DNA from: a virus
Taxonomy: Duplodnaviria > Heunggongvirae > Uroviricota > Caudoviricetes
Strand: one strand, 5' to 3'
Length of the DNA: 22,628 bases
Virus record (IMG/VR): IMGVR_UViG_2861043448_000001
The position numbers were made by a program, and so were the translations under genes. Each line of letters starts with the position of its first letter. Position 1 is the first letter of the stretch. This document shows, piece by piece, positions 1,659 to 22,430 of the stretch. The notes under the pieces were generated by a model. It was not told the DNA's origin and did no database searches. It worked only from the letters and a program-made list of their open reading frames with translations.

Positions 1659-4130
1659 TTAAGAATCAGCCTGACTCGGGATCAGTTTTTGCCAGATAAC
1701 TGAAACGTATTTTGCCTGGTAACGGGCGTCATCAAGTGCATTATGGCGCTCACCTTCGAATTGAATAGCCGTTCTGGCATCGAAGTCTATGACTTTCCCC
1801 AGCTCAACGATTGTGCGTACATCGCGATCGTTGTAGTAACGCCACGGGCAGGGGATCCCCTGCCGTTCGTATGAACGGCGCAAAATCGTGTTGTCGAAGT
1901 TGGCTCCATTCCCCCAAACCTGAACAAAAAATTCACCGGAGTTTTCGTCGATAAATTCCCGCAATTGTAACAGTGCATCATCTAACGGGATTTCATCGGT
2001 CATAATGGCAGATTGCGCTTCGCGTGATTGCTTAAGCCACCATTTAATGGTGTCCCGATCAATGACTCCGCCAGCAGTTTCCAGATCGATAGTCTTACTA
2101 AATTCCGGTCCCATATCTCCGGTTTGCGGATCGAAAAATATTGCACCTATTGAGGTGATCGGGGCATCAGGATTTTTTCCCATGGTTTCAAGGTCGATCA
2201 TTAGATGGTCACACGTCCTGCTGGTGGATGTGATTTCGTGATGACCGTTCACCTTAATTGGGTGATCTGCCGTCTCGCCAGTTTCATTATCGCTATTGTG
2301 ATGCTGATTGCCGCCAGTGTTCTCCTTGTGTGGATGTTCAGCGCCTTCCATTTCCTCCGGATCATCTTCCTGAACTTCAACCTGATACTCTTCATCGAAT
2401 GTTTCTTGGTATGTTGCGTCGCCCATCACCGCGCCACAATCAGGGCAGTTGCCGCCGCCGGTCTGACCGCAGGCGGTGCAGACTTTTTCCACTTCCTGTT
2501 GCGCTACTGGTTCAGGCTGTTTCGTTTCTGGCTCGTTTTGTAACGCATTTGGACTGTTTTGTTCCGCTTTTTGGTAGTTCCGTTCCGATTCATGCTGGTT
2601 CTGGTTCACAGAATCGCGGGTCTGGATCCCCTTAACCCATTTCGGATCATTCGGGTCACTAATCCCTTCAACAAATTCACCACGTGATGCAGCAAGCAAC
2701 TTATCAGCGTCAGGCTGGCTGATATTGGCTGCCTGCATAATTTTGTTTACTTCGTCAGCGGTAACTTTTATCGGCTCTGGTTGTTCTGAATCTTCAGCGG
2801 TATCTACATTTTGCGGTAAGCCCGTGTATGTGCCATTTTTTCGGGCAAAATATTCTTCTTTTGTGATTTCAGTGGCGCCAGCAGCCAGTGCCTTATCCAG
2901 ACCAGAAAGTTTGTTTGCGCGACCGTATTTTTCTCCGTCCTTATCTGCGAAGAGGAAATAGAACGGCCCCTCACGCTCTACAGATGGTTCAGCTTCCGGC
3001 GCGGTTTCATTTTTTGGGATATCAGATACCTCAGTTTCCACTGCATCAGTTTGTGTTTCTGATGACTGGAGAACATCAACAGTGCCCAGGTCTGTTTCTT
3101 CATTCTCAAACACGCCCTTTGTCGTCAGGTATTCGCAGATATATTTGTTCAGTGCTACGGGATCTTTGTGAATGTCGATCGGACGCTCACGGACAAGGCC
3201 AAAAATAGTTTGGCGGTCGTAGCGAAGGGCATCAGGCTGTTTGCGCATTGATGCCGAGATACGCTTCCAGTCTTCGCGGTCGTTGTCGATAACTTCTTTT
3301 TTTGCCCAGCGATGGATGCTGCCGTCAATGTTTCCGGCATCCACATCACCAGGCCAGAGAGCGTAGGCCAGTTCGTCATCCAGTGTTTTCCATGTCTGCT
3401 TGTATTCGCGATGAATGGCAGCAATGACCGGGCTGATTTTTCCTGTTGAATTTTCAGTGTACTGTTGATTGGCTCTGGCGCGTGCGAGATCAACAACAGA
3501 CGTGTATTTTCCGGTTTCCTTGCGTTCACCTTCGCGACGTTTTTTCCAGATGCGCATCTCTGCCTGAATTTCGGGCCATTTAGCACCAGGAATACATTTA
3601 TGCTTAACCCACCCAATGGCGTGCAACTTAAGCTCCGGATACATGGCGTTAACTTCTGGCATTTTCATCAACGCTTCAACGATATGTCCGTCGAATGTTG
3701 CCATGTCTTCCTGCAACAATTCCTGTGCGCTAATAACCATATCAACGGTGATGTTTTCACATGTGTCGAACTTAACCATGACAGCGTTCTGTACTTCAGG
3801 GGCCAGCTTGTCAAAAGTGACGTTCATCGGATCGGATTCAGTCTCAACCGGGACAAAAGAAGCAGACTCCTCATCCCAGCGGTTTTCCTGCATATATTCA
3901 GCATCCCATGAATCGAGGGCAGGGCGGGGTATGCCAGGTTTATCCTCGCAGACAATAAATTTATAAGCGCAGTCCTGAGCAGCCGGATAATGTTCCAGGA
4001 ATTGCCAGTGAAATTTTGCTCGAGCACGGCGTTCGTCGCCAGCTTCAATGGCTGTGGCTACAGCCACAGCGCCTTCTTCCCTTGTTGCCAGTTCGTCAGG
4101 AATAGCGGCGCAAATAAAGACTTTACTCAT
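1659..4130 (-). CDS. large prophage exonuclease (exodeoxyribonuclease VIII-like) with C-terminal DEDD-type 3'-5' exonuclease domain
   Basis: 823-aa ORF. C-terminal about 180 aa carry DnaQ-like motifs (MIDLETMG ... HNALDDARY). Central acidic low-complexity linker and a C-x2-C-x7-C-x2-C zinc-ribbon-like cluster (CTACGQTGGGNCPDCG). A mid-region segment (DKLLAASRGEFVEGISDPNDPKWVKGIQTRD) seems to match my recollection of RecE, which I cannot verify. Confidence 0.75.
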   Translation of the reverse strand: MSKVFICAAIPDELATREEGAVAVATAIEAGDERRARAKFHWQFLEHYPAAQDCAYKFIVCEDKPGIPRPALDSWDAEYMQENRWDEESASFVPVETESDPMNVTFDKLAPEVQNAVMVKFDTCENITVDMVISAQELLQEDMATFDGHIVEALMKMPEVNAMYPELKLHAIGWVKHKCIPGAKWPEIQAEMRIWKKRREGERKETGKYTSVVDLARARANQQYTENSTGKISPVIAAIHREYKQTWKTLDDELAYALWPGDVDAGNIDGSIHRWAKKEVIDNDREDWKRISASMRKQPDALRYDRQTIFGLVRERPIDIHKDPVALNKYICEYLTTKGVFENEETDLGTVDVLQSSETQTDAVETEVSDIPKNETAPEAEPSVEREGPFYFLFADKDGEKYGRANKLSGLDKALAAGATEITKEEYFARKNGTYTGLPQNVDTAEDSEQPEPIKVTADEVNKIMQAANISQPDADKLLAASRGEFVEGISDPNDPKWVKGIQTRDSVNQNQHESERNYQKAEQNSPNALQNEPETKQPEPVAQQEVEKVCTACGQTGGGNCPDCGAVMGDATYQETFDEEYQVEVQEDDPEEMEGAEHPHKENTGGNQHHNSDNETGETADHPIKVNGHHEITSTSRTCDHLMIDLETMGKNPDAPITSIGAIFFDPQTGDMGPEFSKTIDLETAGGVIDRDTIKWWLKQSREAQSAIMTDEIPLDDALLQLREFIDENSGEFFVQVWGNGANFDNTILRRSYERQGIPCPWRYYNDRDVRTIVELGKVIDFDARTAIQFEGERHNALDDARYQAKYVSVIWQKLIPSQADS

Positions 4131-4223
4131 TTTGTTTTAACCTCATGACAGATTTAAGGATGAACAAATCCCTGCCATTGCTGGCATATAAGAATGAAAC
4201 CGGATATTTATTACGGAACTGTT

Positions 4224-4415
4224 TTAAAGACCTGCCGGGATTTCGATATTATCCTGGTTAATAACTTTATCGACCGGGTAACAGTTACCGGGAATTTTCT
4301 GTTCGGTTGCTGCAGTCATACACTCCTGCATTGTCCTGTGAACACTGACTGCAATATCAACTGGCACTCCGGAAACAAGAAAAACTGTCAGAACAAGCGC
4401 AAATGCTGAATTCAT
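4224..4415 (-). CDS. small hypothetical protein with signal-peptide-like hydrophobic N-terminus
   Basis: 63 codons from ATG at 4415-4413 (MNSAFALVLTVFLVSGVPV...); the start overlaps the stop of the upstream ORF as ATGA (translational coupling); AAGGA SD-like upstream. Confidence 0.4.
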   Translation of the reverse strand: MNSAFALVLTVFLVSGVPVDIAVSVHRTMQECMTAATEQKIPGNCYPVDKVINQDNIEIPAGL

Positions 4416-4600
4416 TGTGCACATCCTTTTGGCATCAGACGTAAACGAGCCAGCATTGAAACAATGCATATTTTATTTAATAGCTCCCGTTCTTGTTTTC
4501 TCTTGTTAATGGCATCTTCAGTAAATACAGGGTTACTGATAGTGACACCAATTTCAAAACAACCTTCAGACGTATTAACGTTTGGTAATAACGTTTTCAT
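4412..4600 (-). CDS. hypothetical small early protein
   Basis: 62-aa ORF with GAGGA SD 8 nt upstream of the ATG; coupled to the downstream small ORF; sits next to the operator-like palindromes in the divergent control region. Confidence 0.45.
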   Translation of the reverse strand: MKTLLPNVNTSEGCFEIGVTISNPVFTEDAINKRKQERELLNKICIVSMLARLRLMPKGCAQ

Positions 4601-4652
4601 TATCGCGTCCTCAACAATGAATTTTGTGATGCAGTGCCTGGTGCCTCCAGGT

Positions 4653-4679
4653 GACGTTAACCAGTTAACAATTAACGTC
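4653..4679. promoter_or_regulatory. operator-like dyad: GACGTTAAC-CA-GTTAAC-AA-TTAACGTC
   Basis: 8-bp perfect inverted repeat (GACGTTAA / TTAACGTC) enclosing two GTTAAC palindromes, in the divergent intergenic region between leftward early genes and the rightward replication gene. Confidence 0.35.
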
Positions 4680-4743
4680 GGATATCCGGATTAGTGATTT
4701 CAGGTTGTATCGTGAGATCAGTGATGGAAAAAGTATTACGTAC

Positions 4744-4926
4744 ATGATCGCCGGGTTAAATAAAGAATATGGCGATGTGGTGGAATCCGGACTGCTTTTT
4801 GCAGATCCTGCCGTTGTAGATCGTGAAACTGACGAACTTATAGAAAAAGCAATTGCTTTCAAGCTTGCGTATCGACAGCAATACCAACAAAAAGCTGGAT
4901 GGAATTATGAGTCTTCTTTTTGCTGA
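4744..4926 (+). CDS. hypothetical small protein (first rightward ORF)
   Basis: ORF in the track from TTG at 4705; first ATG at 4744 (MIAGLNKEYGDV...). Overlaps the start of the replication gene by about 20 nt. Weak SD; could be a cro/cII-position gene or spurious. Confidence 0.3.
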   Translation: MIAGLNKEYGDVVESGLLFADPAVVDRETDELIEKAIAFKLAYRQQYQQKAGWNYESSFC

Positions 4927-5872
4927 ACGCCCACTGGTTATAAACACGCAGCTGGCAATGAAAATTGGCTTAAACGAAGCCATTGTTTTGCAACAACTGC
5001 ACTACTGGTTGAGAGATACCAACTCCGGCATGGAATGTGATGGTGTTCGCTGGATTTATAACACAACGGAACAATGGCTGGAACAGTTCCCATTCTGGTC
5101 AGAGTCAACGTTAAAGCGCGCGTTTGCAAGTCTGAAAACGCTGGGGCTTTTGCGTTGTGAAAAGCTCAATAAATCAAAGCGCGATATGACCAATTTCTAC
5201 ACGATCAACTACGGGAGCGAGCTTTTAGATGGTGGCAAATTGAGCGAATCCATCGGTTTAAAATGCGCCGCTCCATCAGGTCAAAATGACACGATGGAAG
5301 AGGTCAAAATGAAACGCTCCATTGGTTCAAAACGACTCAATGTCATCGGGTCAAAATGGCCTGATGATCTTACAGAGAATACAACAGAGATTACTACAGA
5401 GAATAAAAAGACTTCTCGTCCGGAAGCTTCGCAACCGGACCCGCAGACGGTTGAACAGGATTTTTTAACCCGACACCCTGACGCGGTTGTGTTCAGTGCG
5501 AAAAAACGCCAGTGGGGCAGCCAGGAAGATTTGGCGTGTGCGCAGTGGATCTGGGGGCGAATCGTGAGTCTTTACGAGCAGGCCGCCAGCGATGATGGCG
5601 AGATTTCGCGACCGAAAGAACCCAACTGGACCGCATGGGCCAACGACGTGCGCACAATGCGGATGCTGGATGGCAGAACTCACAGACAAATTTGTGAAAT
5701 GTTTGGTCGGGTGCAGCGGGATCCATTCTGGGTAAAAAATATCATGAGTCCGTCAAAGCTTCGCGAAAAATGGGATGAACTGGTTATCCGCCTGGGGCGT
5801 TCGTCTGTACAGCGTTGTGTGAATCATATTTCTGAGCCGGATACCGAAATTCCGCCGGGCTTCAGGGGGTAA
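4907..5872 (+). CDS. phage replication initiation / replisome-organiser protein with DnaT-like C-terminal domain
   Basis: N-terminal HTH-like region (RPLVINTQLAMKIGLNEAIVLQQLHYWL...), linker with amino-acid repeats, C-terminal region (ACAQWIWGRIV...WTAWANDVRTMRMLDGRTHRQICEMFG...DPFWVKNIMSPSKLREKWDEL) resembling primosomal DnaT C-terminal domains. ATG at 4907 is preferred over the upstream TTG at 4853. Confidence 0.75.
   Translation: MSLLFAERPLVINTQLAMKIGLNEAIVLQQLHYWLRDTNSGMECDGVRWIYNTTEQWLEQFPFWSESTLKRAFASLKTLGLLRCEKLNKSKRDMTNFYTINYGSELLDGGKLSESIGLKCAAPSGQNDTMEEVKMKRSIGSKRLNVIGSKWPDDLTENTTEITTENKKTSRPEASQPDPQTVEQDFLTRHPDAVVFSAKKRQWGSQEDLACAQWIWGRIVSLYEQAASDDGEISRPKEPNWTAWANDVRTMRMLDGRTHRQICEMFGRVQRDPFWVKNIMSPSKLREKWDELVIRLGRSSVQRCVNHISEPDTEIPPGFRG
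5371..5406. repeat. three tandem 12-bp iteron-like repeats (NNACAGAGAWTA) in the replication-gene linker
   Basis: ttACAGAGAATA caACAGAGATTA ctACAGAGAATA, encoding TENTTEITTEN; position is analogous to lambda ori inside gene O. Confidence 0.3.
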
Positions 5873-15661: not shown

Positions 15662-15737
15662 GGCCCTTTAGCTCAGTGGTGAGAGCGAGCGACTCATAAT
15701 CGACAGGTCGCTGGGTCAAATCCAGCAAGGGCCACCA
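15662..15737 (+). tRNA. tRNA with CAU anticodon (Ile2/Met type, ileX-like)
   Basis: Cloverleaf read by eye: acceptor GGCCCTT/AAGGGCC, anticodon loop CUCAUAA, T-arm GCUGG-GUCAAAU-CCAGC, 3' ACCA. Close to E. coli ileX as recalled. Confidence 0.85.
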
Positions 15738-15738
15738 A

Positions 15739-15815
15739 CCGTCACCAGTTCATCAGGAAAGAGCGTCAACCCTTTAAGTTGAGTGTGCGAGGTTCGAGTC
15801 CCCGGTGGCGGTCCA
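15739..15815 (+). tRNA. atypical tRNA-like gene (anticodon loop CCUUUAA; identity uncertain, possibly degenerate)
   Basis: 77 nt with acceptor, D, anticodon and T arms, but C at positions 8 and 33 and an A-C mismatch in the T-stem. Confidence 0.4.
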
Positions 15816-15817
15816 GT

Positions 15818-15893
<76 letters not shown>

Positions 15894-15896
15894 TAT

Positions 15897-15971
<75 letters not shown>

Positions 15972-16263: not shown

Positions 16264-18426
16264 ATGAAATCCATGGACAAAATTTCAACGGGCATTGCCT
16301 ATGGCACCTCCGCAGGCAGTGCTGGCTACTGGTTTTTACAGCTGCTCGATAAAGTCACGCCCTCACAGTGGGCAGCAATAGGTGTGCTGGGTATCCGCAC
16401 CGGCGGGCGCGTGCTGGCGGTAAACAGCCAGACCCGGACGCTGACGCTCGACCGTGAAATCACGCTGCCATCTTCCGGCACCACGCTGATAAGCCTGGTT
16501 GACGGGCAGGGGAGTCCGGTCAGCGTGGAGGTTCAGTCCGTCACCGACGGCGTGAAGGTGAAAGTGAGCCGTGTTCCTGACGGCGTTGCTGAATACAGCG
16601 TATGGGGGCTGAAGCTGCCGACGCTGCGCCAGCGCCTGTTCCGCTGCGTGAGTATCCGTGAGAACGACGACGGCACGTATGCCATCACCGCCGTGCAGCA
16701 TGTACCGGAAAAAGAGGCCATCGTGGATAACGGGGCGCACTTTGACGGCGACCAGAGCGGCACGGTAAATGGTGTCACGCCGCCAGCGGTGCAGCACCTG
16801 ACCGCAGAAGTCACCGCAGACAGCGGGGAATACCAGGTGCTGGCCCGCTGGGACACGCCGAAGGTGGTGAAGGGCGTGAGCTTCCTGCTTCGCCTGACCG
16901 TGGCAGCGGATGACGGCCGTGAGCGGCTGGTCAGCACGGCCCGGACGACGGAAACCACTTACCGCTTCACACAACTGGCTCTGGGGAACTACAGGCTGAC
17001 AGTCCGGGCAGTAAATGCGCGGGGGCAGCAGGGCGATCCGGCGTCGGTATCGTTCCGGATTGCCGCACCGGCAGCGCCGTCGCGGATTGAGCTGACGCCG
17101 GGCTATTTTCAGATAACCGCCACGCCGCATCTTGCGGTTTATGACCCGACGGTACAGTTTGAGTTCTGGTTCTCGGAAAAACGGATTGCGGATATCAGGC
17201 AGGTTGAAACCAGCGCGCGTTATCTTGGTACGGCACTGTACTGGATAGCCGCCAGTATCAATATCAAACCGGGCCATGATTATTATTTTTACGTTCGCAG
17301 TGTGAACACCGTTGGCAAATCGGCATTCGTGGAGGCTGTCGGTCAGCCGAGTGATGATGCATCAGGCTATCTGGATTTTTTCAAAGGCGAGATAGGGAAA
17401 ACCCATCTGGCTCAGGAGCTGTGGACGCAGATTGATAACGGTCAGCTTGCGCCTGACCTGACTGAAATCAGGACGTCCATAACGGATGTCAGCAATGAAA
17501 TAACACAGACCGTCAATAAGAAACTGGAAGACCAGAGTGCAGCGATCCAGCAGATACAGAAGGTTCAGGTTGATACAAATAATAACCTGAACAGCATGTG
17601 GGCAGTGAAGCTGCAGCAGATGCAGGACGGACGCCTTTATATTGCGGGTATCGGTGCCGGTATTGAGAACACCCCTGACGGCATGCAGAGTCAGGTGCTG
17701 CTGGCAGCAGACAGGATTGCGATGATTAATCCTGCGAATGGCAACACAAAGCCGATGTTTGTTGGTCAGGGCGATCAGATATTCATGAATGAAGTGTTCC
17801 TGAAACGCCTGACGGCCCCCACCATTACCAGCGGCGGTAATCCTCCGGCATTTTCCCTGACATCAGACGGGAGACTGACGGCGAAAAATGCGGATATCAG
17901 TGGCAGTGTGAATGCGAACTCAGGAACGCTCAACAATGTCACGATTAACCAGAACTGTACGATTAAGGGCATGCTGGAGGCGACCCAGGTCAGAGGAGAT
18001 TTCGTTAAAGCTGTATCAAAAGCCTTCCCGAAAAAAGTCGGTACGTGGGGTAACACGGAAACACCAAACGGTACGGTTACAGTAACCATCAGCGATGATC
18101 ATAACTTTGACCGCCAGATTATTATTCCGCCCATTATTTTTAACGGTATAGCGTATGACGATCCGGGGAGCGGAAATAACCCAGGAGGCACGCGATACAC
18201 GGGTTATGGTTTTGAAGTTCGCAAAAACGGCGTATTAATCGCATCCAGAGAAACTAAAGGGGCCATTCCCGGTAGTTACAGTGCAGTTATTGATATGCCG
18301 AGTGGCAGGGGAAGCGTCACTCTGGAGTTTAAGATTTTCCAGAAAGGCAATCAGGGGGCAGGCAATATCACCGACTGTACGGTGATTGTGACCAAAAAAG
18401 CGGCTTCCGGCATCAGTATTCGTTGA
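16264..18426 (+). CDS. chimeric ORF: class II (phage 21 S-type) holin N-terminus (43 aa) fused in frame to the C-terminal about 677 aa of tail tip host-specificity protein J
   Basis: Residues 1-43 ([26 protein letters not shown]...AAIGVLG) match the phage 21 pinholin N-terminus as recalled; from residue 44 ([20 protein letters not shown]...) to the end the protein is collinear with lambda J from about residue 455. Strong SD (GGAGGTGAGG). Junction at about nt 16392/16393. Confidence 0.8.
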
Positions 18427-18448
18427 AATATTTATAACCCCAATAAAG

Positions 18449-18475
18449 GGCGTCAGGAATGACGCCTTTTTTATT
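18449..18475 (+). terminator. intrinsic terminator after the J fragment
   Basis: GGCGTCA-ggaa-TGACGCC followed by TTTTTTATT. Confidence 0.6.
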
Positions 18476-18496
18476 GCAGAAAAGCGAGAGGTAATT

Positions 18497-18892
18497 ATGC
18501 GTAAAGTTTGTGCAGCAATTTTGTCCGCAGCCATTTGTCTGGCCGTATCCGGTGCGCCTGCATGGGCGTCTGAACATCAGTCCACGCTGAGCGCGGGGTA
18601 TCTTCATGCCCGGACCAACGTTCCCGGCAGTGATGATCTGAACGGGATTAACGTGAAATATCGTTATGAGTTTACGGATACGCTGGGGCTGGTGACGTCA
18701 TTCAGCTATGCAGGAGACAAGAATCGCCAGCTGACCCGTTACAGCGATACCCGCTGGCATGAAGATTCCGTGCGTAACCGCTGGTTCAGCGTGATGGCGG
18801 GGCCGTCTGTGCGCGTGAATGAATGGTTCAGCGCGTATGCGATGGTACTGGTGGAAGAACTATCGAGCAAGCACGTGCGAACTTGCGGGTAA
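18497..18892 (+). pseudogene. lom: truncated lom (Lom/Ail outer-membrane protein, N-terminal about 115 aa)
   Basis: Signal peptide plus ...GINVKYRYEFTD...RWFSVMAGPSVRVNEWFSAYAM... matches lambda Lom; similarity ends at about nt 18845 and the frame runs into unrelated sequence before a stop. Confidence 0.7.
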
Positions 18893-20655
18893 TGTATGAG
18901 CAAAAAGCTGGCCTTGCTAATACTGACCTAAACACCCTTACCGGTGAATATTCTGGTTTCTATCAACAACCAACGAGCGCTTACGCAACAGAAGAGTTAA
19001 ATTACCCAATCGGTCTGGCGGGCGCTTTAATAGTGCTCCAAACGAGAGCCAACACTGCTTCTTCCTGCGTTCAGGTGTACCACCCTTATAATAATCCGGG
19101 AATTACTTATAGACGAATATATGAAGGAGGTAGCGGTACCTGGTCTGAATGGAAGAGAGATGTATCAACAGAAAGGGTTGAAGAGGGAAAAGAAACAACT
19201 TACGTATATTCTACGTATTCTTCAGGCGCACCACGCTTACAGGTTTCCAAATCTGGTTTGTGGGGTTGTCATAATGGCACTGGCTGGTTGCCATTAGCTG
19301 TTGGGCAAGGAGGTACAGGTGCGACAACAGTAGAAGATGCGCGAAACAACTTAAGTCTTGGCGAAAGTAGCGCAGTTAAATTTAAAAACCTTACTTTAAC
19401 CGAAGCGCTCGACACGACATTAGGACTGCTTACAAAAACAGGACGAGACTGGAACACGCAGCATACTGATAACATTAATAAATTTATACCAATTGCAGGC
19501 AGTACAAACGGCCCGGCAGGCTCTATGGTTCTTGGCGGCATTCATGTTCAATTTAGTAAAAATTATGCTGTGCAGTTCGGAGGCCGCAATTCCGGTTTTT
19601 GGGGAAGAACAATTGAAAATGGAACGACACAGGAATGGAAGAAATTACTAACAGTAGACGATCTCAATTCATCTACCGATCTTGCTGTCAGGTCATTAAC
19701 CACATCTAACCCGGTAAAATCTGGCGGAGGGCGAATTGATGTCCTTGGAAGCACGTCAGACTATAGCAAAATGGATTGCTTTGTACGTGGGTTTGATAGC
19801 ACCGGTAATTCTCTCGTGTGGGCGTTGGGTTCATCAGTCGGCGTAAGTAAGATGCTATCGCTAAAAAATTTCTTTAGCGGAGCTGAGATACTGTTAAATG
19901 GTAATGACGGCGCGGTTCAACTCAAAACAGGTGCTGTTAACGGGGCTACAGCGCAGACGCTCACTATCAACAAGAATGAGGTTAACTCAACCGTTGATTT
20001 AACCCTTACAAAGCAATCAGGGACTGGTAATCGTTTTGTTTTACAGAACTCAGGTAATGCAGAACTACCGTTTTCTGTCAGGGTGTGGGGTTCCAGTACT
20101 CGACAAAACGTTTTTGAGGTTGGAACGTCTGCTGCGTATCTGTTTTATGCGCAAAAAACGTCAGCAGGCCAGTTGTTTGATGTAAATGGCGCTATTAATT
20201 GCACAACGCTGAATCAGTCATCAGACCGCGACCTTAAAGACGATATTCTCGTTATCAGCGACGCGACGAAAGCAATCCGTAAAATGAACGGATACACCTA
20301 CACGCTCAAGGAAAACGGGATGCCTTATGCTGGCGTTATTGCACAGGAAGTAATGGAGGCGATACCAGAAGCTGTGGGATCGTTTACTCATTATGGTGAA
20401 GAGTTGCAAGGTCCGACCGTTGACGGCAACGAGCTACGCGAAGAAACTCGCTATCTTAATGTTGACTACTCCGCCGTGACGGGTTTACTTGTTCAGGTCG
20501 CCCGTGAAACAGATGATCGCGTTACCGCGCTGGAAGAGGAAAACACAACGCTACGTCAAAATCTGGCAACAGCAGGCACCCGGATCAGCACTCTGGAAAA
20601 TCAGGTAAGCGAACTGGTTGCACTTGTCCGGCAGTTAACAGGAAGCGAACATTGA
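18823..20655 (+). CDS. tail fibre protein (probably 5'-truncated) with C-terminal intramolecular chaperone (peptidase S74-like) domain
   Basis: Tail-fibre motif GQGGTGATTVEDARNNLSLG; C-terminal SDRDLKDDILVIS...NGYTYTLKENG...DYSAVTGLLVQVARE resembles autoproteolytic chaperone domains of tailspikes. The N-terminus starts inside lom in another frame; ATG 18892 is an alternative internal start. Confidence 0.7.
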   Translation: MVQRVCDGTGGRTIEQARANLRVMYEQKAGLANTDLNTLTGEYSGFYQQPTSAYATEELNYPIGLAGALIVLQTRANTASSCVQVYHPYNNPGITYRRIYEGGSGTWSEWKRDVSTERVEEGKETTYVYSTYSSGAPRLQVSKSGLWGCHNGTGWLPLAVGQGGTGATTVEDARNNLSLGESSAVKFKNLTLTEALDTTLGLLTKTGRDWNTQHTDNINKFIPIAGSTNGPAGSMVLGGIHVQFSKNYAVQFGGRNSGFWGRTIENGTTQEWKKLLTVDDLNSSTDLAVRSLTTSNPVKSGGGRIDVLGSTSDYSKMDCFVRGFDSTGNSLVWALGSSVGVSKMLSLKNFFSGAEILLNGNDGAVQLKTGAVNGATAQTLTINKNEVNSTVDLTLTKQSGTGNRFVLQNSGNAELPFSVRVWGSSTRQNVFEVGTSAAYLFYAQKTSAGQLFDVNGAINCTTLNQSSDRDLKDDILVISDATKAIRKMNGYTYTLKENGMPYAGVIAQEVMEAIPEAVGSFTHYGEELQGPTVDGNELREETRYLNVDYSAVTGLLVQVARETDDRVTALEEENTTLRQNLATAGTRISTLENQVSELVALVRQLTGSEH

Positions 20656-20838
20656 TATCCTTCAAGCCCTGAAGGAGGCTGTTCCTGGTACGTTCAGACT
20701 GTTGTTGAGCTGGAAATCGCAACGGAGGAAGAAACTTCGTTGCTGGAAGTCTGGAAGAAGTATCGGGTGTTGCTGAACCGTGTTAATACAACAACTGCAC
20801 CGGATATTGAATGGCCAGTAGCACCTATAGGGTAAATT
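20656..20838 (+). pseudogene. tail fibre assembly (tfa) 3' fragment, no start codon
   Basis: Frame directly after the fibre stop encodes ...[37 protein letters not shown], resembling Tfa C-termini as recalled. Confidence 0.5.
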
Positions 20839-20881
20839 CGTAATGATTACCTAAATACGTTATTCTGGTAATGACTCCAAC

Positions 20882-21385
20882 TTACTGATAGTGTTTTATG
20901 TTCAGATAATGCCCGATGACCTTGTCATGCAGCTCCACCGATTTTGAGAACGACAGTGACTTCCGTCCCAGCCTTGCCAGATGTTGTCTCAGATTCAGGT
21001 TATGCCGCTCAATTCGCTGAGTGTAACGCTTGCTGATTACGTGCAGCTTTCCCTTCAGGCGGGATTCATACAGCGGCCAGCCATCCGTCATCCATACCAC
21101 GACCTCAAAGGCCGACAGCAGGCTTAGAAGACGCTCCAGTGTGGCCAGAGTGCGTTCACCGAATACGTGCGCAACAACCGTCTTCCGGAGCCTGTCATAC
21201 GCGTAAAACAGCCAGCGCTGGCGCGATTTAGCCCCGACGTATCCCCACTGTTCGTCCATTTCCGCGCAGACGATGACGTCACTGCCCGGCTGTATGCGCG
21301 AGGTTACCGACTGCGGCCTGAGTTTTTTAAATGGCGGAAAATCGTGTTGAGGCCAACGCCCATAATGCGGGCGGTTGCCCGGCAT
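20882..21385 (-). CDS. insB: IS1 transposase InsB (expressed as InsAB' by frameshift)
   Basis: 167-aa ORF overlapping insA in the -1 frame; sequence matches IS1 InsB. Confidence 0.9.
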
Positions 21386-21579
21386 CCAACGCCATTCATG
21401 GCCATATCAATGATTTTCTGGTGCGTACCGGGTTGAGAAGCGGTGTAAGTGAACTGCAGTTGCCATGTTTTACGGCAGTGAGAGCAGAGATAGCGCTGAT
21501 GTCCGGCGGTGCTTTTGCCGTTACGCACCACCCCGTCAGTAGCTGAACAGGAGGGACAGCTGATAGAAACAGAAGCCAC
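21304..21579 (-). CDS. insA: IS1 protein InsA
   Basis: 91-aa [46 protein letters not shown]... matches IS1 InsA. Confidence 0.9.
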
Positions 21580-22184
21580 TGGAGCACCTCAAAAACACCA
21601 TCATACACTAAATCAGTAAGTTGGCAGCATCACCGTTATTCTTTTGTTCAAAAAGTGATTTTGCTATAGGTAGGGAGTATGTTCTTGGATTAAGAATAAA
21701 AATCGCCATGAAAGAGCTTCATGGCGAGTACATAAACGTACAAAATATGATGAAAGTAGAGTGGCGTAAGCCACTATATTAAGATATGACAATAGCGAAG
21801 AAAAGTAAATAACATTTTATGGGCGTTTAATTGTTAATTATAAAAACTAGAGTGCCCGATATTGTTTATCTTGCTTTAAAATAATGTACTCAAACCAAAT
21901 TTTTGAGCTAAAAGCTCAAATAATATAAATGCAATGATAATGTTTAATAAGACAATTAGCTTGCTTTGTATTTTCATTTCGGAATACTGTTAAGTAACTT
22001 TGATGACACTAACAATAGATCGGAATTTTCTTAGAGTCAATGGTCACTGTTTTTGCTTGCAAAGCAAATGTTTTTGGTGGTTATAAGTTTTCTTAATATA
22101 GTCACCTATGCAACTTGTTCCGTGTGGAGATTAAAGGTTAAAATTTAATGCGAAGATGGAATTATAATATATTTTTTTATAATT

Positions 22185-22289
22185 AATTTAACCTTAACAT
22201 CGTTGCTGGCGGCATGGAAGAAATATCGGGTCTTGCTGATGTCGTGTTGGCACTTCCTTAGTGCGGTTATCGAATGGCCAGCTGTACCT
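22185..22289 (+). pseudogene. second, more diverged tfa 3' remnant
   Basis: Encodes ...[31 protein letters not shown]; DNA is similar to 20740-20838 at both ends; no start codon. Confidence 0.35.
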
Positions 22290-22430
22290 GTGGGGTAAAA
22301 ACTTTATATGGGTGCTATTTTTATAATAGCTGGTAAAAACTGGCCGAACTGAAATTCACTGTTGATAAAAAAGATGTGTTTGAGTGTATGTCATTGTTTT
22401 CTTAACGGAATCCACTAGAATGCAGCGAAT

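Follow-up and report, generated by a model that had tools for sequence, protein, structure and literature searches.

A probable microhomology deletion joining lom and stf remnants in a Qin-type cryptic prophage of Escherichia coli

Organization of the prophage

The window, the whole stretch of 22,628 nucleotides analysed here, corresponds to a cryptic lambda-like prophage of the Qin type, located in E. coli between rspB and a truncated ydfJ. Genes encoding integrase, excisionase, exonuclease, ydfD/dicB, hokD (with the sok RNA), rem, rusA, an antiterminator and a tRNA cluster are all found in it. The first of two internal junctions is an in-frame fusion of holin and J sequences (16264-18426, + strand), in which 43 holin codons are followed by the C-terminal 677 residues of the tail-tip protein J. 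The holin family PF04971 covers residues 5-43 of the fusion, J domains residues 165-719. In the three carriers inspected the fusion is reported by PGAP as two partial pseudogenes. Genes for lysis, head and tail are removed by the fusion. None for lysis, head or tail shaft is left in the prophage, and a fibre would consequently be unusable by the element even if intact.

The J remnant is separated from lom by a terminator-like hairpin (18449-18472, + strand), which reads directly as GGCGTCA-GGAA-TGACGCC followed by TTTTTT. The same hairpin was also reported by the scan, where it is given on the - strand, and a terminator is annotated at the corresponding position of phage mEp460. Downstream of the lom and stf sequences described below lies a remnant of the tail-fibre-assembly gene tfa (20704-20835, + strand), of which only the C-terminal end is left. 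It is a PGAP pseudogene (22275-22406 in locus L001), and the same remnant follows also the intact stf alleles of loci L002, L003, L006 and L007. The fibre remnant is further followed by an IS1 copy (20867-21634, - strand), with terminal inverted repeats at 20867-20889 and 21612-21634 and ORFs resembling InsA and InsB. The element interrupts the BLAST alignment to L001, and about 9 bp of target DNA are duplicated. Save for the IS1 at 20867-21634, the segment 16001-22628 is 100% identical to NZ_CP042934.2 (strain '042'). The insertion itself is absent from complete RefSeq genomes, in which the best place is 97.7% identical and split in two pieces.

The lom fragment

The 5' part of lom (18497-18845, + strand) includes codons 1-116 plus one nucleotide, and has a good Shine-Dalgarno sequence of its own, GAGAGG. 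The lom-frame ORF extends from 18497 to 18892 and encodes 131 aa. Signal peptide and N-terminus MRKVCAAILSAAICLAVSGAPAWA are present, and residues 1-119 match positions 1-119 of the 199 of PF06316 (Ail_Lom; E=6.7e-72), whereas the intact relative matches positions 1-199. The profile positions that would complete the barrel are thus not covered. At the DNA level, positions 18430-18845 match lom of numerous lambdoid and Stx phages, with identity up to 97.8%, and the match ends at 18845. The remainder of the ORF (18846-18892, + strand) is a frameshifted tail of 15 foreign codons, VLVEELSSKHVRTCG, derived from stf DNA read in the wrong frame and closed by the TAA at 18890-18892. As judged from its sequence, the window appears to hold a fragment of a member of the Ail/Lom family, and not a functional member.

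The fibre remnant

The 3' part of stf (18844-20655, + strand) corresponds to Stf residues 492-1094 plus the stop codon, and lacks promoter, ribosome-binding site, start codon and the N-terminal 491 residues. The stf-frame ORF (18823-20655, + strand, 610 aa) overlaps the lom-frame ORF. The two ORFs start at 18823 and 18497, positions that are 1 and 2 modulo 3, and their frames therefore differ. In intact Stf, PF08400 (phage_tail_N) spans residues 1-134 (E=3.9e-72), and residues 1-94 match the PDB entry 9e7m, 'Tail fiber protein'. A profile search did not find PF08400 in the 610-aa window ORF; the domain for tail attachment is thus missing, in agreement with the preliminary description, according to which the conserved N-terminus of the fibre is lost. 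A search of NCBIfam returned no usable family, whether for the intact fibre or for the remnant.

Domains located farther downstream are retained. These include a pyocin-knob-like region, similar to the R-type pyocin fibre of PDB 6cl5 (residues 522-666 of the intact protein) and a coiled-coil-like tail at the C-terminus. The S74 intramolecular chaperone domain (20221-20376, + strand; ORF residues 467-518) matches positions 1-57 of the 58 of PF13884 (E=9e-13), scores 48.7 bits against a cut-off of 22, and is the sole significant domain of the ORF. The complete domain is found at the C-terminal end, and the equivalent part of intact Stf is matched by PDB 6f45. At the start of the domain the motif SSDRDLKD features a serine and, five residues on, a lysine; presumably it fits the Ser-Lys autoproteolytic motif of the family, cleavage itself being putative. 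The chaperone domain had been described as kept, and so it is. The accompanying statement that the receptor-binding region is complete is supported indirectly, since collinearity of the remnant with intact alleles extends as far as the stop codon, and its last 1378 nt are 91% identical to the fibre gene of mEp460, the 3' flank matching this phage as well.

The 610-codon frame is fully open. An open frame is expected for a recent event, and does not by itself prove loss of function. Compared with six other alleles, the remnant carries three synonymous and four non-synonymous window-specific substitutions, too few for a selection test; 19817T, 19949C, 19957A and 19975A are examples of window-specific variants.

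Structure of the junction

Lom similarity stops at position 18845, after codon 116 (...SAYAM), and stf similarity begins at 18843/18844 in a frame differing from that of lom. BLAST comparisons with five loci hosting intact lom or stf set the left end at 18845 in every case, and the right start at either 18843 or 18844. The passage from lom to fibre sequences in another frame, placed at about 18845 in the preliminary description, is in this way confirmed to the base by both BLAST and alignment. At base level, the lom parent reads ...TATGCGATGG up to the break and CGGGTG... past it (...GCGTATGCGATGG and CGGGTGTGG... in the longer version). The stf parent reads ...CCCAGGGTGG before the break and TACTGGTGG... 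past it (...GCCCAGGGTGG and TACTGGTGG... in the longer version), and the window reads ...TATGCGATGGTACTGGTGG... across the junction (...GCGTATGCGATGGTACTGGTGG... in the longer version). According to the three-way alignment and the BLAST end points, the deletion junction falls at 18843-18845 (+ strand), within a TGG microhomology found in both parents. The parental overlap at the joint is 3 nt (TGG) with L002 and 2 nt (GG) with L003. In the repeat scan no repeat family, inverted repeat, IS end or att-like element touched positions 18843-18845. Few shared bases at the joint, and neither a long repeat nor an IS end nor a recombinase site, are what is sought in a microhomology deletion.

The stf break falls at the conserved motif GGTGG-R-T-I-E-Q-A-R-A-N-L, which was considered as a boundary of a recombinational module. 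The idea was rejected: two further truncations of this stf allele have other break points, at codons 282 and 359, and the joint does not preserve the reading frame.

The missing block

The sequence 18846-19437 gave no match in the phage collection by megablast, and intact comparators were therefore taken from E. coli chromosomes. Locus L002 (strain RMDEC332) features J, a lom gene of 600 nt (199 aa) and a stf gene of 3285 nt (1094 aa). The same lom and stf are found in L003 (strain TW11681), at the ydfJ site. L006 (S30) and L007 (39EVA), the latter also located at ydfJ, encode a Lom of 199 aa and a Stf of 1101 aa. The viable phage mEp460 is similarly organized, with J, a terminator, lom (199 aa), a second terminator and stf (1202 aa, with phage_tail_N). 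None of these intact relatives shares the short lengths and the starts seen in the window, Lom being of 199 aa and Stf of 1094-1202 aa; the observation named in the preliminary description as refuting it was thus not made, and the arrangement is not native.

In L002, L003, L006 and L007 the sequences flanking the junction are parts of one contiguous segment. The stf part of the window is 97.3-98.7% identical at the DNA level to the intact stf genes encoding 1094-1101 aa, and collinear with them to the stop codon. By BLAST, window position 18845 equals L002 position 4210, and positions 18843/18844 equal L002 positions 5998/5999. In the four loci a distance of 1790 or 1811 bp separates the break points, whose order and strand are those of the window. 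The block missing from the window is 1790 bp long in L002 (4211-6000), and 1811 bp long in L006 and L007. Either length equals 2 modulo 3, and lom and stf are thus joined out of frame. Lost along with the block are Lom codons 117-199, the terminator between lom and stf (AGCCCGCC-GGTTCA-GGCGGGCT followed by TTTTT), the ribosome-binding site and start of stf, and Stf residues 1-491. The native stf start and the GGGGTGAATATG region (L002 4515-4528) both fall within it.

The lom fragment of the window is 93-96% identical to the lom genes adjoining the matching stf alleles, but 97.8% identical to lom of other phages. In no genome sampled do lom and stf both reach 98% identity to the window, so that the exact ancestor is unavailable. 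Some homologous exchange took place around lom, either before or after the deletion.

Signals for expression of the remnant

The first ATG of the 610-aa ORF (18823-18825, + strand) lies in out-of-frame lom DNA and is not preceded by a Shine-Dalgarno sequence (anti-SD energy +0.3). The ATG at 18892-18894 (+ strand), from which a 587-aa ORF may be read, is an internal methionine codon of stf, found in the native stretch ...ANLRVMYEQ.... Promoter or ribosome-binding support for this codon, a matter raised in the preliminary description, did not emerge. Its anti-SD energy (-2.2) equals the median of all 424 ATGs of the window; values of -7.1 and -10.8 were obtained for the starts of lom (among the best 4% of window ATGs) and holin, respectively. 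No stf start with a ribosome-binding site of its own is found downstream of lom. No sigma-70-like promoter site was detected on the + strand between 18000 and 21000, a result of little weight either way, the total of sites being below shuffle expectation.

ATG 18892 overlaps the stop codon of the lom' ORF (TAA, 18890-18892) as TAATG, and from this sequence termination-reinitiation is conceivable. TAATG is native stf sequence, and the overlap is thus accidental. The terminator between lom and stf having been deleted, a lom transcript, if any, now continues into 'stf.

Distribution among E. coli genomes

An 80-nt query spanning the junction was covered for at least 80% in 116 of 5426 complete E. 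coli genomes, a count including at least one false entry (ACN002), in which two separate pieces are joined. The first 600 nt past the junction are mostly present in 210 of the 5426 genomes, and in some of these a 'prophage tail fiber N-terminal domain-containing protein' is annotated at that place. An even-step sample of the 600-nt matches led to estimate that about 110 feature the junction of the window, about 75 an intact stf, and about 25 other truncations. Identity is 100% over all 2159 nt in at least 60 of the genomes listed (the best 60 records). The three carriers inspected, from Switzerland, Norway and India, share locus and holin-J fusion with the window; in all three, PGAP describes a lom pseudogene 'missing C-terminus' and a fibre pseudogene 'missing N-terminus'. 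Two carriers (H121 and H122) host an IS1 within the fibre remnant, and the remnant is therefore dispensable. The occurrence of an identical junction in many independently assembled genomes rules out an assembly artefact. The simplest reading would be that a single deletion event has been vertically inherited within one E. coli lineage.

Origin of the junction

The junction is very probably the scar of one illegitimate deletion, with short microhomology, that occurred in a defective lambda-like prophage resident at the ydfJ (Qin-type) site. The ancestor would have featured, in the order, J, a terminator, lom (199 codons), a second terminator and stf (about 1094-1101 codons). Over the common TGG, a break within lom codon 117 would have met one near stf codon 491/492, with removal of 1790-1811 bp, plausibly by replication slippage or end joining at the microhomology. 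The resulting Lom', made of 116 of 199 residues plus 15 frameshifted ones, would be too short to close an outer-membrane beta-barrel, and 'Stf would be left without promoter-proximal signals and without the N-terminal domain anchoring the fibre to the tail. Vertical inheritance within a single E. coli lineage would then have spread the deletion. As no virion was left to use the fibre, the loss was plausibly selectively neutral, and both remnants are probably non-functional.

The preliminary description had envisaged either a second deletion or a modular exchange. The former is borne out, one contiguous block being missing relative to the relatives; the latter is not needed. Illegitimate recombination between two phages or prophages might have set a foreign distal fibre module beside lom, and the closest relatives of the two parts do differ. 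The lom fragment is 97.8% identical to lom genes of ev243 and Stx phages, whose fibres do not match, and the stf part shows 98.7% identity to prophages in which lom is only 93-96% identical to that of the window. Fibre genes are moreover known mosaics, and the matches to the remnant in mEp460, Ayreon and PhiR70_1 are limited to 3' parts of decreasing length. Ordinary homologous mosaicism of the ancestor however accounts for such differences in best relatives, while the genes are ordered, oriented and spaced exactly as in a contiguous lom-stf pair devoid of its middle. The out-of-frame joint ruins both genes, unlike what is expected of an exchange selected for function, and the sequences meet at a microhomology of 2-3 nt and not at a homologous module boundary. 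An origin by exchange is accordingly very unlikely.

The fibre remnant might alternatively encode a functional, N-terminally truncated protein, starting at ATG 18892 by reinitiation at TAATG, or at 18823, and acting as a free receptor-binding, chaperone-bearing polypeptide. The open 610-codon frame and the complete S74 domain are compatible with this, as are the strong Shine-Dalgarno sequence of the lom' ORF, the overlap of its TAA with an in-frame ATG, and the read-through of a lom transcript permitted by the loss of the terminator. Yet the TAATG overlap is fortuitous, neither start has Shine-Dalgarno support, and no promoter-like site is found on the + strand. The tail-attachment domain is lost in a prophage that has no tail genes, and the remnant is interrupted by IS1 in two carriers. 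Conservation is uninformative, because the carriers listed are all 100% identical. Production of a working fibre fragment is thus highly improbable. The chance that the arrangement is native or a mis-assembly is practically nil, as nothing except the open reading frame speaks for it, whereas genes are full-length in intact relatives and in the viable mEp460, and the identical junction recurs in many complete genomes assembled independently.

The 3' part of stf might have been kept in cryptic prophages because useful, either as a donor cassette acquired through recombination by infecting lambdoid phages, with a change of host range, or as a protein made through the TAATG overlap with the lom' ORF, itself still well translated. 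This is very unlikely, and is entertained because the same stf allele has been 5'-truncated at least three separate times, each time with an open 3' end (in the window, in ACN002 and in E92), and because an enrichment of tail-fibre genes has been reported for incomplete prophages (PMC7744054).

The deletion scar is a case of ordinary lambdoid prophage decay, and RefSeq already lists its two halves as pseudogenes. Together with the holin-J fusion it documents the decay of a Qin-site prophage, and is of little importance in itself. The identical junction may serve as a cheap lineage marker, being carried by about 110 of 5426 complete E. coli genomes, or about 2%. The appropriate annotation for the 610-codon ORF is a pseudogene rather than a tail-fibre protein; PGAP does not treat such remnants consistently, since it gives the comparable one of ACN002 as an intact CDS.

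Comparison with known prophages

Qin of E. coli K-12 occupies the same integration site as the window prophage, from rspB to the truncated ydfJ, and similarly hosts hokD, rem, dicB and ydfD. The style of decay is also that of Qin, Rac and DLP12, in which big internal deletions take away genes for lysis, head and tail and leave a 3' fibre fragment and tfa remnants. The K-12 prophages Qin, Rac and DLP12 have all undergone large deletions, and stf and tfa survive in them as fragments (truncated stfQ, stfR and tfa). In Rac, lomR is interrupted by IS5. The window differs from all these prophages for its own break points (holin codon 43 to J, and lom codon 116 to stf codon 492), for a fibre allele of the S74-chaperone type, and because no pin invertase is found downstream. 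The fibre remnants of Qin and Rac recombine with infecting lambda at a frequency of about 2e-6 (PMC3945230).

In laboratory lambda (lambda PaPa) stf is split by a frameshift into orf401 and orf314, and loss of stf is tolerated and readily selected (PMC2762979, PMC3945230). As in the window, a frame-breaking lesion inactivates the side-tail-fibre gene and the distal coding sequence remains open. In contrast, the lambda PaPa lesion is a frameshift in a viable phage, whereas the window features a deletion of about 1.8 kb that removes also part of lom, in an element producing no particles. The similarity to mEp460 does not extend to the proximal and middle parts of the fibre, which are unrelated at the DNA level.

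An independent event of the same kind is found in E. coli ACN002 (NZ_CP007491.1), which has the same stf allele as the window (97.3% identical). There too a truncated lom runs out of frame into an internal part of stf; an adjacent second deletion fuses terminase to J. ACN002 differs in that lom codon 165 is joined to stf codon 359, about 1254 bp are lost, and the prophage lies at a DLP12-type site. Its remnant, of 736 aa, is called an intact CDS by PGAP. In E92, the same stf allele is cut at codon 282 and joined to unrelated DNA. ACN002 and E92 are independent 5' truncations of the same allele.

The recurring 5' truncation of one stf allele is the only feature hinting at something beyond chance. 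The repeated survival of the 3' end of the fibre gene fits the published persistence of fibre genes in cryptic prophages and their capacity for donation to infecting phages.

Other truncations of the stf allele

The side-tail-fibre allele (stf) truncated in the window has lost its 5' part in two other E. coli strains as well. At the DLP12-type site of strain ACN002 (NZ_CP007491.1), a lom'-'stf deletion located at positions 3116-5810 of the extracted locus (L004) adjoins a terminase-J fusion. About 1254 bp are missing at the joint, where stf codon 359 is fused out of frame to lom codon 165. Its break points differ from those of the window, and the deletion is a separate event that affected the same fibre allele. 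The 736-aa stf remnant is annotated by PGAP, the NCBI annotation pipeline, as an intact CDS (WP_024179294.1), yet it lacks the N-terminal domain. A third 5' truncation is carried at the ydfJ site by strain E92 (NZ_CP119734.1; positions 3350-5810 of locus L005); here unrelated DNA gives way to stf homology at codon 282, and the annotated CDS, again of 736 aa, begins at the internal Met 359 of stf. The 3' end of stf is still open in all three truncated genes.

Sequences flanking the junction

Two short C-terminal remnants of tfa, the tail-fibre-assembly gene, are found in the window at 20704-20835 and 22203-22298, in the same orientation as each other, and both encode peptides ending in ...WKKYRVLL...IEWP.AP.G. 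Intact S74-type stf alleles are also trailed by a tfa remnant, suggesting that fibre modules had been replaced earlier at this end of the prophage. Immediately past the first remnant lies an IS1 element (20867-21634) flanked by a target duplication of about 9 bp. A search of 5426 complete E. coli genomes in RefSeq found no IS1 at this site, so that either the insertion is private or the strain of origin is outside that set.

On the other side of lom, the first junction of the window is an in-frame holin-J fusion (16264-18426), a 720-aa open frame in which codons 1-43 of a P21-type holin are joined to the C-terminal 677 residues of the tail-tip protein J. The frame has a strong Shine-Dalgarno sequence (energy -10.8), and is preceded by an antiterminator and a tRNA cluster (15662-15971) that separates this antiterminator from the start of the holin. 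In principle, the late promoter could drive production of a membrane-anchored J fragment. ARAGORN detects four tRNA genes in the cluster (CAT, Lys-TTT, Thr-TGT and Gly-TCC). Three are counted by Rfam, and three (Ile, corresponding to the CAT gene, Thr and Gly) by PGAP in identical DNA; the Lys-TTT tRNA (15739-15815) is thus far a candidate gene.

Origin of the lom fragment

Identity of the lom fragment (18430-18845) reaches only 93-96% with the lom genes adjoining the matching stf alleles in the E. coli loci L002, L003, L006 and L007, where both genes are intact, against 97.8% with the lom genes of ev243 and several Stx phages. The closer similarity to the latter shows homologous mosaicism spanning the J-lom-stf region.
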